In this document: piece after piece, positions 27,134-52,731 of the stretch | Layout of the letters: the number at the start of each line of letters is the position of its first letter | How positions within the stretch are numbered: the first letter of the stretch is position 1 | The notes under the pieces: generated by a model | What the model was told of the DNA's origin: nothing | The model's database searches: none | Seen by the model: only the letters and a program-made list of their open reading frames with translations | NCBI GenBank assembly: GCA_041178425.1 | Contig: JBEGVH010000016.1 | Coordinates: 160,802-224,801, forward strand | Origin: Pseudomonadota bacterium | GTDB taxonomy: Bacteria > Bdellovibrionota > Bdellovibrionia > Bdellovibrionales > Bdellovibrionaceae | DNA length: 64,000 nt | Reading direction: 5' to 3' | Made by a program: the position numbers and the translations under genes

Positions 27134-28630
27134 CTATCTCGCCAAGAGGGACCACTCGACTAATTTATCTAGTATTCTTGAGAGCGGCATTTTTTGCGCT
27201 GAACCGCGTACGCCAATATTAAAATATTCAGTCGGTAATGGCATGACTCCCTCCCAAACAGGGAGTGTTTCTTCTCCATTAACAAACGCCATCGACCCAT
27301 CTGCAGGTTTCCAAAGCATATCAGGATGAGCTTGCTGATACCATTCTCCCCCGATGATGTTAGCGTCTTTATCCAATTCGAGATCGTAGTAATAAGTCAC
27401 TGCCACTAATCTCTCTAATGGGTTACTGATTGAGTTACGATGATTAGCATCCTCCTCCACCACATATTGAATATCTGAAATCACACCAACGAGGTATTCA
27501 GTGCCCGGTGATCGATATTTTTTATAAGGATCTTTTTTAACGTCAGAGTATTTGACAATGGAATTTTCTAAACTGGTTATTTTCTGAGTTTCGGGATTAA
27601 AATAGCTCAAACGATAACTAGAAATCGGTTGATTCCAAACTTCGTAATCATAGGTCGCATCAAGCACAAAACTTTGTTTTTTTAGTCCAACCCAGTGAGT
27701 GAGAGCCAGATGCCAAGTAGACGGGTTCACATCAAAGCATTCCGAGCTAATAACTCTCCCATTAGAGTCGGTTTTTGGATGCTTATCATTACAACGCCCA
27801 CCAAGAAAATTATAGTTAAAGCTTGCTTGAGCCCAGAGCTGTGAAATGAGTCCCTTGAGGTCATGGGGATAAATACGTAGAGTGCCTTTTTCTTCTTTGA
27901 GATCAATGTCAAAGGCCTTCTTTGGTTCAGGAACACTAAACGCTGCAGGTGCCCAGCCATGACAAATTCCAAACCAAGTTTCAACTTTTCCATACATATC
28001 TTGGTATATTTTCCCCTCGGTCCAAACCGCTTGGGTTAGGCTCCATTTTTTATCTCCGAGAAGGTAATCATACTTTTCTGCGGGAGATAGTTTTCCAAGT
28101 TCATCAGGATCACCATTTAAGGGCTTGAGATAATTATTTTGATAGTACTTATAATTTATTTTGAAGCTTTCTGAGCGCGGAAATTTAGGATCTGCATAGC
28201 GATTTCCAAGACCGCCTTGATACATGGGCCAATAATAGCCTGCCCAAGGGATTTCTTTTACGTTTCCTTCATCCAAGGCTGATAACTTTAAAATATTTCT
28301 TTCGTAGCCTCCTCCCAGAAAGGCCCTCAATTGAATTTCATCACTAAATAATTCAAAAAGCTGGTATTCTGCCGAGTCCTGACAAACTTCTCCGGGAGCA
28401 CTGGCCTTACAAAGCTTTTTGCTACGAAAGTCATCTTTTGCGGCCACAAAAGCTTTTCTAGAGATATCTGTGCTTGAGAATTTCAAAATGGAAGCAGCTC
28501 CTGTTTTTCTGGGAAGCTCTTCAGAAGCAAGTGCCGGATCTTTAAAATGTCTCTCTAAGAAGCTATGGTCTTGAGCTAATGCTATATTTTTAATCAAAAC
28601 TATTAGGGTTAAGATAAAAAGTTGTTTCAC
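27134..28630 (-). CDS. secreted transglutaminase-elicitor (GP42-like) family protein
   Basis: PWAGYYWP, LSPAEKYD, WFGICHGWAPAA, DLKGL, GGRC, DVNPSTWH, EVWNQP. GTG start after AAGGGGG. Confidence 0.75.
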   Translation of the reverse strand: MKQLFILTLIVLIKNIALAQDHSFLERHFKDPALASEELPRKTGAASILKFSSTDISRKAFVAAKDDFRSKKLCKASAPGEVCQDSAEYQLFELFSDEIQLRAFLGGGYERNILKLSALDEGNVKEIPWAGYYWPMYQGGLGNRYADPKFPRSESFKINYKYYQNNYLKPLNGDPDELGKLSPAEKYDYLLGDKKWSLTQAVWTEGKIYQDMYGKVETWFGICHGWAPAAFSVPEPKKAFDIDLKEEKGTLRIYPHDLKGLISQLWAQASFNYNFLGGRCNDKHPKTDSNGRVISSECFDVNPSTWHLALTHWVGLKKQSFVLDATYDYEVWNQPISSYRLSYFNPETQKITSLENSIVKYSDVKKDPYKKYRSPGTEYLVGVISDIQYVVEEDANHRNSISNPLERLVAVTYYYDLELDKDANIIGGEWYQQAHPDMLWKPADGSMAFVNGEETLPVWEGVMPLPTEYFNIGVRGSAQKMPLSRILDKLVEWSLLAR

Positions 28631-50970: not shown

Positions 50971-51594
50971 CTATTTATGGAGAGACACTTTGGATTGATG
51001 AAGGGTATTTAATCTTGATTTGGCCTTTGTTAACTTTGCTTGTATTGCTTTTCGCGTTGTGACCTGATTTTTTTGCTTAATCTTCAACACTCGAATCTCT
51101 GCCTTCAACACTCTCTCTTTTTTTATGGCCTCACGGAGCTGTTCATCTAACGACGCATTGGCCGCTTTCAGTTTATCGTTAGCTATGAGCAAATTATTTT
51201 TTTGTTTTTCCACTTTACTGAGAGCTATTTGTGCTGACTTAGCCTTTGTTTGCGCTTGTTTTTGCTTCGATTGTAGCTCAGCCTTCTTCTTCTTCATTTT
51301 GGCCACAAATTTTTCTGTCTCCATTTTTTTTTGGAGCGCATTTTTTTCTTCTCTTTGTGCCTGAGAAATGGCCGTTTTGGCTTCATTGATCATCGAAACT
51401 GAATTTAATTTTTCTTCTTCGAGACTTCGTTGAGCCTCAGCCGCCTCTTGCCTTGCCGATTCTGATCTCGCCAAAGCTTCTTCCGACTCAATTGTTGCTA
51501 CGTCGGATTCAATTTGGCTAGCAAATACCAACGGACTCTGAACGATTAACAATAAAAAGAACGCTAAATTCTTGGTGTTTATATAATGGCCCAT
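50971..51594 (-). CDS. secreted coiled-coil protein (acidic N-terminal half, basic C-terminal half)
   Basis: AGGAG RBS before ATG 51594; signal peptide ending VFA|S; E/K/A/Q-rich heptads. Confidence 0.7.
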   Translation of the reverse strand: MGHYINTKNLAFFLLLIVQSPLVFASQIESDVATIESEEALARSESARQEAAEAQRSLEEEKLNSVSMINEAKTAISQAQREEKNALQKKMETEKFVAKMKKKKAELQSKQKQAQTKAKSAQIALSKVEKQKNNLLIANDKLKAANASLDEQLREAIKKERVLKAEIRVLKIKQKNQVTTRKAIQAKLTKAKSRLNTLHQSKVSLHK

Positions 51595-51869
51595 TCTAAA
51601 AGACTCCTTCTCGAAACGCTTGAGACACAAATACCAACAGAGGTGCCACACAGCTTTCGATCTATTATGGGACAGCTCTATTGGATAAGAGGCCTTTCGA
51701 CAAGAAGGCGTTTTTTGCCTTTTTAGGCAAAGTTTGTCACCTTCTCTTAAATAACTGTTTTCACTGGCTTTCAATAGCCTATCTACCAAACAAAAGTACT
51801 TTGTAAATAAGTGAGAGCCAATCTTGGGCACTTTATTCCGCCCAACCATTGCTAAAAACTACCAGACCA

Positions 51870-51885
51870 TGGCACAGGGGTTGCT
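51870..51885 (+). promoter_or_regulatory. canonical sigma54 promoter
   Basis: TGGCAC-AGGGG-TTGCT, a full match to the -24/-12 consensus. Confidence 0.75.
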
Positions 51886-51895
51886 CATAGGATAA

Positions 51896-51950
51896 AGTAC
51901 CCCCTTGAAGCGGCCTGGTACCCCCCCCCTCCAGGTCGCTTTATTTTTCT
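51896..51950 (+). ncRNA. candidate small RNA with C-rich loop and intrinsic terminator
   Basis: Lies directly downstream of the sigma54 promoter. Stem AAGCGGCCTGG/CCAGGTCGCTT (one G-U pair), loop TACCCCCCCCCT, then TATTTTTCT. Confidence 0.5.
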
Positions 51951-52017
51951 CCCATGCTCTTGGTCTAATTTTTTAAACTGGGCTCCCCATCGAAGCTAAC
52001 TCAATTAAATTAAAATT

Positions 52018-52731
52018 ATGACGAAATCGTTTTTAATTCTTCAAATTATTTTGGTTGTATCTCTCATTTCTCTTCGTGTTTCGGCCTACACCATTATTAT
52101 CGACCCTGGCCATGGAGGCGAAGATAACGGTGCCATTAAAGGCAACGTCATTGAGTCTCGTATAACACTTCAGGTCGCTCTTAAACTGGCGGCCAAATTC
52201 GAGCAGGATAAGGATACCAAAATAGTGTTAACGCGAAATCGCAATTCGAGTATTTCGCTTAAGGATCGCACCCAAGCGGCTGAAATAAATGATGCCGATC
52301 TCTTTGTTAGTATTCATGGCAATTCATCAACAGATAGTCGTGCCAAAGGCGCTGAATTCTATTTTGGCGCATCAAACCGCAGTAACGCTTCTGCTACGTC
52401 AAAAGAGCAAAAGGACACTAAAGCTCCCACAACAATTGAAAACATAATTAGTAGCCTTGAGCACAATGCTCGGCTTTACAGAAGCAGTTACCTCGCCAGC
52501 GACACCTTTCATACATGGAAAAAAGGCACTGCAACCCAGGCACGAGCTATTCGGCAGGCGCCATTTTACGTCATCAACAAAAACACAATTCCTTCTGTCT
52601 TGGTTGAGATAGGCTTCATTACCAATCGTAAGGAATCGATGGAACTCATAAGAGAATCGGCCCAAGATCAGTTAGCAGAAAGCTTATACCAAGCCATTTC
52701 TTCCTATCGCGAAAAAAGCAAATTGAACTAA
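52018..52731 (+). CDS. N-acetylmuramoyl-L-alanine amidase (Amidase_3), secreted
   Basis: IIIDPGHGGED, E, FVSIHGNS, VLVEIGF; signal peptide. Confidence 0.92.
   Translation: MTKSFLILQIILVVSLISLRVSAYTIIIDPGHGGEDNGAIKGNVIESRITLQVALKLAAKFEQDKDTKIVLTRNRNSSISLKDRTQAAEINDADLFVSIHGNSSTDSRAKGAEFYFGASNRSNASATSKEQKDTKAPTTIENIISSLEHNARLYRSSYLASDTFHTWKKGTATQARAIRQAPFYVINKNTIPSVLVEIGFITNRKESMELIRESAQDQLAESLYQAISSYREKSKLN

Follow-up and report, generated by a model that had tools for sequence, protein, structure and literature searches.

The window, by which we mean the whole 64,000-nt stretch of DNA analysed here, contains a short element in the gap between two divergent genes, one for a coiled-coil protein and the other for an amidase, both outside the predicted RNA (Table 1). 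The first-pass annotation had read this element as a full-consensus -24/-12 promoter followed by an 11-bp stem that contains a single G-U pair, an exposed C-rich loop and a U-rich tail, with a sequence repeated at 51897 and 51918, and the amidase starting about 70 nt past the tail. Inspection bears out this description. The TGGCAC-N5-TTGCT promoter is exact and has no second exact match anywhere in the window (0.05 matches expected; 5/100 shuffles), GTACCCCC begins at both positions, UACCCCCCCCCU forms the loop, and the tail ends at 51948, with the amidase ATG at 52018. In sigma-54 promoters the start site lies 12 nt from the C of the -12 box; the 5' end of the RNA was inferred at that distance, and its 3' end was placed at the U-tail.

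Table 1. Features of the element, of its flanking genes and of related terminators (window positions unless a genome and contig are given).
Feature	Position	Strand	Basis
Coiled-coil protein gene with signal peptide, divergent neighbour	50971..51594	-	no Pfam match; HD100 Bd2697 is the positional counterpart
Sigma-54 -24/-12 promoter, TGGCAC-N5-TTGCT	51870..51885	+	sequence; GG-N9-TGC in homologues; genome has rpoN
Predicted small RNA, ~53 nt	51896..51948	+	sequence, homologue length, covariance model R1
Seed 1: C-rich single-stranded 5' arm, GUACCCCCU	51897..51905	+	predicted unpaired, p >= 0.98
Terminator hairpin, AAGCGGCCUGG / CCAGGUCGCUU	51908..51941	+	fold z -4.26; covariation
Seed 2: C-rich hairpin loop, UACCCCCCCCCU	51919..51930	+	loop C-richness in homologues
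U-rich terminator tail	51940..51948	+	sequence; alignment A2 of homologues
N-acetylmuramoyl-L-alanine amidase gene (Amidase_3), downstream neighbour	52018..52731	+	Pfam PF01520
3'-UTR terminators with C-run and C-loop	G000:C30:229484-229545 (+); C14 near 137500 (+); C11 near 13140 (-)		

The predicted RNA folds into a single hairpin with arms at 51908-51918 and 51931-51941, including the G-U pair, and in the minimum free energy structure the stem reaches 13 bp by running into the tail. The + strand fold gave -21.4 kcal/mol (z -4.26), a value equalled by none of 200 shuffles, and folding of 51896-51948 favoured the + strand over the reverse strand (-21.1 versus -15.9). Both C-runs are unpaired in the prediction (p >= 0.98). 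Exact duplication of GUACCCCC is a trait of the window's genus (L001-L004, L034), while most relatives keep the C-runs only. Regarding coding potential, the claim that no ORF fits holds in part: a 23-codon frame does open with TTG at 51905, but it is unlikely to be coding, because the loop lengths of the homologues are spread over all three frames (52, 29 and 26 of 107). Searches against Rfam 15 gave no match over the element (window 51000-52600, E 10), and 16 homologous loci yielded two weak overlaps only, with E values of 2.7 and 4.5, far under the cut-off. According to these searches, the element has no Rfam 15 family.

We searched 53 of the 64 parts of a genome collection with a pattern made of the C-run, stem and tail, in which the promoter was left out, the loop was unconstrained and several stem positions were fixed. 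This gave 119 loci, 12 of which were excluded for carrying titles of other phyla (one of the 12 had GG-N9-TGC), and the remaining 107 were counted, L126 and L175 being kept despite their non-Bdellovibrionota titles. Records bearing the element have titles of Bdellovibrionales and relatives, and include named B. bacteriovorus strains such as Bd5 and Bd16. The GG-N9-TGC signature was found within 45 nt upstream in 104 of the 107 loci, compared with 183 of 8087 background windows (2.3%), and also in 32 of 32 inspected covariance-model matches. Among the 104 promoter-bearing homologues, the predicted RNA measures 50-59 nt in 97 and the C-run starts 14-16 nt past the -12 C in 86. Loops differ in length and sequence yet remain C-rich, with at least four C in all 107 homologues and at least five in 101; 23 of them carry the anti-SD-like CCUCCU, and in one large group the loop is CCUCCUUAC, a near match to the 16S 3' end, GAUCACCUCCUUUCU.

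An alignment of the stem from 72 copies had 720 of 720 cells paired, with five of the ten pairs altered on both sides. One of these changes is a U-A/A-U swap in a 41:30 ratio with no unpaired cell, and none of 500 shuffles attained any of these measures. Such shuffle counts overstate significance, since some letters of the stem were set by the pattern and the copies are kin; the 41:30 swap without mismatch is not imposed by the search pattern. The covariance model R1, built from the aligned copies, matched 124 of 150 genomes of the class and 39 of 41 relatives (36 of 36 among the high-quality ones), mostly once per genome, and 26 of the 29 genomes of the order in a sample of the phylum. When 20 of the 26 class genomes negative for R1 were searched at lower stringency, two gave a C-loop hairpin, with no promoter in the 50 nt inspected beside it. 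The comparison with relatives thus finds promoter, spacing, stem and C-rich loop conserved across the order, with compensatory changes in the stem, and lends strong support to the annotated stand-alone, sigma-54-driven RNA of ~55 nt with C-rich seeds. We conclude that the element is very probably a real, transcribed small-RNA gene conserved in Bdellovibrionales.

Beyond the class, R1 gave weak matches in 14 of 120 genomes (E 0.05), the best of them at 2.5e-4. Three of the 14 were inspected and none had the promoter; these matches were rejected as generic terminators. Four genomes of one genus in which the RNA was not found (L460-L463) have terminators with the same GCGGC/GCCGC stem ends as the RNA and neither C-rich loop nor promoter; these could be remnants or chance.

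One could argue that the promoter-terminator unit matters as DNA, either as an insulator separating divergent genes or as a sink for the sigma-54 holoenzyme and its activator, with a functionless transcript. The element does sit in the divergent gap in most genomes, as such a role would have it. However, this would leave unexplained the 5' C-run, the C-rich loop and the fixed length of 50-59 nt, and a CCCC loop is found in just 4 of the 207 terminator-like hairpins of the genome, the hairpin of the RNA included. A role as DNA is, in our opinion, quite improbable. The other three CCCC-loop terminators end genes for secreted proteins or lipoproteins, two of which begin at perfect TGGCAC-N5-TTGC sites, of which the genome has nine. 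Besides, a C-loop terminator stands behind a gene of ~60 residues with a sigma-54-like promoter in Bd5 (L440), second promoter-bearing copies of the element were found in HCB337 (L438) and G036, and the 2.0 Mb of G027 showed no C-loop terminator placed behind a gene. These numbers are small, and the terminators may be sibling RNAs derived from 3' UTRs or a trace of the origin of the stand-alone gene.

The alternative put forward with the annotation was an attenuating leader, in which read-through would govern the amidase operon. Among 69 flanked loci, the next gene is a same-strand amidase in 48, in agreement with this idea; in the others the element is inverted toward the coiled-coil gene (10 loci), faces a convergent gene (7) or precedes another gene (2), or no next gene is visible (2). 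The positional counterpart of the coiled-coil gene in HD100, Bd2697, labelled 'Ccrp', drew no paper in our literature search. Its start site was mapped at 2,619,972, and the -50 to +1 string printed for it takes in the element's 3' arm together with its U-tail (start-site table of PMC3627812), so the downstream gene of HD100 starts beyond the terminator. By arithmetic from this start site, the HD100 RNA would lie at ~2,620,058-2,620,002 on the minus strand. Given the 17 of 69 loci that are inverted or convergent and the separate start site in HD100, the element is not an amidase leader. In addition, the predicted fold of the read-through transcript formed no antiterminator, and there is no fixed position before one gene family, as would mark a cis attenuator or riboswitch. 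Inversion, rearrangement and the HD100 start site contradict the leader, which is largely refuted and which we consider very improbable.

Three further features of the neighbourhood were recorded. Start regions of the amidase (window 52000-52018 and homologues, L062-L141) are AT-rich and contain GGAGG or AGGAG in none of 53, which suggests that its translation may be leaderless or SD-independent. On the minus strand, a near-consensus sigma-54 site, TGGCAC-N5-TTGGT (window 51633-51648), lies 39 nt before the coiled-coil ATG at 51594; it is not conserved, just 2 of the 110 homologous loci showing a similar one. Finally, a weak Rfam match to RT-2 on the minus strand of 51586-51780 (E 0.045, 19.9 bits, cut-off 40) was taken as chance.

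The genome contains rpoN and 11 strong matches to the enhancer-binding domain of sigma-54 activators, which together with the GG-N10-GC promoter are the sequence components of a sigma-54 unit. Allowing two mismatches, we found the palindrome CTGTC-N9-GACAG upstream of 62 of 137 copies of the element, in comparison with 6.65 in shuffles and 9 downstream; its centre lies 50-80 nt ahead of the -24 box, as expected of an activator site. The palindrome is absent upstream of the window's own copy. In five named Bdellovibrio genomes, the combination of palindrome and promoter gave 19 matches, compared with 3 when the pattern was reversed as a control. Of the 12 matches inspected, 10 precede genes with secreted-looking products. 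At the Bdellovibrio loci L415, L417, L422, L423, L426, L428 and L431, the related TGTC-N9-GACA stands 35-65 nt ahead of the sigma-54 promoters that serve genes for secreted proteins; these loci are a candidate activator regulon. When palindrome-bearing Bd5 genes were placed onto HD100 tags, one could be mapped tentatively, by position, to Bd3240, which is listed on the 'predatosome' sheet of PMC2797640. There are weak hints that the RNA may be induced on prey entry.

Putting these elements together, we propose that an enhancer-binding protein would fire the sigma-54 promoter through the upstream CTGTC-N9-GACAG, and that an RNA of ~53 nt, ended by its own terminator hairpin, would accumulate. 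Its two unpaired C-rich seeds would then pair with G-rich ribosome-binding sites and block translation initiation without Hfq, probably on several mRNAs, with fliA (sigma-28) and a LuxR-type regulator as leading candidates. We give a probability of roughly 0.6 to the reading that the RNA is a stand-alone, chaperone-independent repressor acting by anti-Shine-Dalgarno pairing. Blocking of initiation is the simplest mechanism by analogy with 6C, sX13 and LhrC, and the predicted conserved, unpaired C-rich motifs in a stable small RNA scaffold are what defines this functional class. The chaperone search covered the Hfq family (PF17209), which had no match in the 100%-complete genome and matched 5 of 14 controls. 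Start regions with GGGGG amount to 164 of 2758 (6%) and those with GGGG to 375 of 2758 (14%), on crude gene calls.

In order to contextualize this proposal, we compared the RNA with known ones. The C-rich loops of 6C of M. tuberculosis bind many target mRNAs directly and with no chaperone (PMC6486639). The likeness lies in these C-rich loops proposed as chaperone-free mRNA-binding sites; 6C, however, is actinobacterial, has several C-rich stem-loops and matches Rfam, whereas the predicted RNA combines a single terminator hairpin with a C-rich 5' arm, is preceded by a sigma-54 promoter and matches no Rfam family. The Xanthomonas sX13 is a 115-nt, Hfq-independent RNA with three stem-loops that represses through C-rich loops (PMC3771888). 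Both RNAs present 4C/5C motifs, which in sX13 face, and here would face, G-rich motifs near start codons, both appear independent of Hfq, and in both organisms about 5-6% of genes have a G-run at the ribosome-binding site. They differ in length and number of stem-loops, no sequence or model similarity was found between them, and the sX13 passages of PMC3771888 do not report sigma-54 control.

A parallel in regulation is Pxr of Myxococcus xanthus, with a predicted sigma-54 promoter, an upstream enhancer region and an hfq-less host (PMC5684412, PMC11928866). Both RNAs come from hfq-less predators and have targets that are still uncertain, and both have a predicted sigma-54 promoter with an enhancer-like region upstream, a likeness judged by sequence only. 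Pxr differs in having three stem-loops and an adjacent activator gene (pxrR/pxrK). The predicted RNA has one hairpin and no activator gene beside it, its neighbours being the coiled-coil and amidase genes, and the Pxr model RF01812 had no match in the genome at E 10. Our best reading is that the RNA would work like the C-rich, chaperone-independent sRNAs, yet be a member of neither Pxr, 6C nor any Rfam family.

In LhrC of Listeria, C/U-rich motifs in single-stranded regions and in the terminator loop pair with targets, and there are sibling copies (PMC4132741). The predicted RNA shares the location of its C-rich motifs and has putative siblings. In Helicobacter, HPnc5490/RepG pairs through a C/U-rich motif in its terminator loop, and the staphylococcal RsaE is another sRNA with a C-rich loop. 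LhrC and HPnc5490/RepG belong to other phyla and have other promoters and lengths, and the predicted RNA matches no Rfam family. CsrA-sponge RNAs such as CsrB/RsmZ carry repeated GGA motifs in their loops, unlike the homologues found here, whose loops are C-rich and contain at most three G. RNAIII, Qrr and HPnc5490 are mentioned in PMC3771888. Regarding the same group of organisms, B. bacteriovorus has eight reported attack-phase RNAs, APsRNA1-7 and merRNA (PMC3627812), and a 261-nt RNA at bd0103-bd0108 (PMC3818213). All are intergenic like the element, but they measure 98-655 nt and lie at other HD100 coordinates, the element being beside Bd2697 near 2.62 Mb. We found no prior description in the literature searched, which was composed mainly of non-subscription papers.

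The RNA might also be real and serve as a decoy or sponge whose C-runs bind a G-rich regulatory RNA or a poly(C)-preferring protein. For the latter, a KH-domain protein, S1, a cold-shock protein or Rho would be conceivable partners. It would fit a decoy that C content is conserved rather than an exact seed, that the candidate targets show no covariation with the RNA, and that the C-run and C-loop terminator recurs in the 3' UTRs of unrelated genes, like a protein-binding tag. On the other hand, the loops converge on the anti-SD-like CCUCCUU (23/107), which suits pairing better than poly(C) binding. An RNA of ~53 nt is rather short for Rho to load on, and the decoy reading names no specific partner. 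We regard a decoy as rather unlikely and retain pairing with ribosome-binding sites as the preferred reading.

The two candidate regulators were picked among genes whose start region has GGGG in G000 and again in G027, the latter being covered for 2.0 of about 2.2 Mb (976 gene pairs). Among fliA start regions across the order (G000:C10:51489-52274 (-); L327-L356), GGGG was present in 16 of 30 and GGAGG or AGGAG in none. For the LuxR-type HTH gene (G000:C14:30041-30421 (-)), 29 of 30 leaders were extracted and every one ends in GAGCAAGG-ATG, mostly after a GG(G)AGG; the leader is nearly invariant across the order as GGAG(G)GAGCAAGG-ATG-CTC-AG (L357-L386, L480-L509). By comparison, GGGG was found in 0/53, 0/48, 4/45 and 2/24 start regions of four neighbour genes, and in 11/24 of an unrelated control gene. 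Pairing of each RNA with the target of its own genome was no better than permuted for fliA (24 genomes; p 0.15, 0.32) or the LuxR-type gene (25 genomes; p 0.64, 0.66), and fliA ranked just 604 of 2758 in its own genome. GGGG before fliA occurred in 6 of 10 genomes with the RNA versus 4 of 10 without a detected one. Within one family, the LuxR leader had GGGG in 9/9 genomes with the RNA versus 2/10 where it was not found, these samples being hand-picked and several RNA-negative genomes small and fast-evolving. The core of the leader is retained in most genomes in which the RNA was not found. We take this core to resemble a CsrA site. CsrA is present in the genome, and Bdellovibrio CsrA was active in a heterologous assay (PMC13443453). 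The leader looks like a conserved site of post-transcriptional control, for CsrA and/or the C-loop RNA. Hence, fliA and the LuxR-type gene are unproven candidate targets.

Conservation of G-run start regions between G000 and G027 (OR 1.75-2.5) was not above that of ordinary Shine-Dalgarno words (OR 2.5-3.2). Two other ideas were discarded: G-run start regions do not mark FliA-promoter (attack-phase) genes (odds ratio < 1), nor are they specific to secreted genes, where the OR of 2.0, on a crude signal-peptide call, is accompanied by 1.7 for GGAGG. As a separate observation, the start region AAGGGGGTAC (window 28630 (-), gene 27134-28630) is perfectly complementary to the 5' arm over 10 bases and gave the best 5'-arm score of the genome, -19.9 kcal/mol.

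In HD100, 30 min of predation bring both fliA (Bd3318) and Bd1826 down to about 0.55-0.6; by 3 h the two have diverged, fliA being low and Bd1826 high. Bd1826 is the only HD100 gene annotated LuxR, and its orthology was assumed from label and length. Its high level 3 h into growth (7092 RPKM versus 675) would agree with an RNA whose pairing with G-rich sites on mRNAs has an activating or stabilising effect, for instance through the opening of a G-rich structure, or mainly affects mRNA decay; the G-rich motifs of sX13 targets also serve as enhancers (PMC3771888). Such an outcome seems improbable to us, given that the candidate G-runs occupy the Shine-Dalgarno position, where pairing normally blocks ribosomes, and that Bd1826 falls at 30 min.

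The RNA is a probable core non-coding gene of a predatory order, with no entry in Rfam and no mention in those Bdellovibrio sRNA papers that were searched. Its design is minimal, with a promoter, two C-rich seeds and a terminator in a lineage without an Hfq match. B. bacteriovorus, which is genetically tractable, carries it at a position that follows from a published table. The sharp switch of Bdellovibrio from its attack programme to its growth programme is an open question (PMC3627812), and a sigma-54-driven RNA with fliA and a LuxR-type regulator as candidate targets offers a testable answer. In a speculative and rather doubtful extension, prey contact would fire a sigma-54/enhancer regulon made of secreted predation proteins and the RNA, together with C-loop siblings processed from the 3' ends of sigma-54 mRNAs, silencing translation of FliA, the sigma factor of the attack phase, and of Bd1826; if true, this would be the missing post-transcriptional switch from attack to growth phase. 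Finally, a further perfect sigma-54 site (G000:C14:48335-48560 (+)) has behind it a structured stretch that carries CCUCCUCCUCC and GGAGGGG motifs; no start codon is evident over 330 nt, and the site could belong to a second non-coding RNA.
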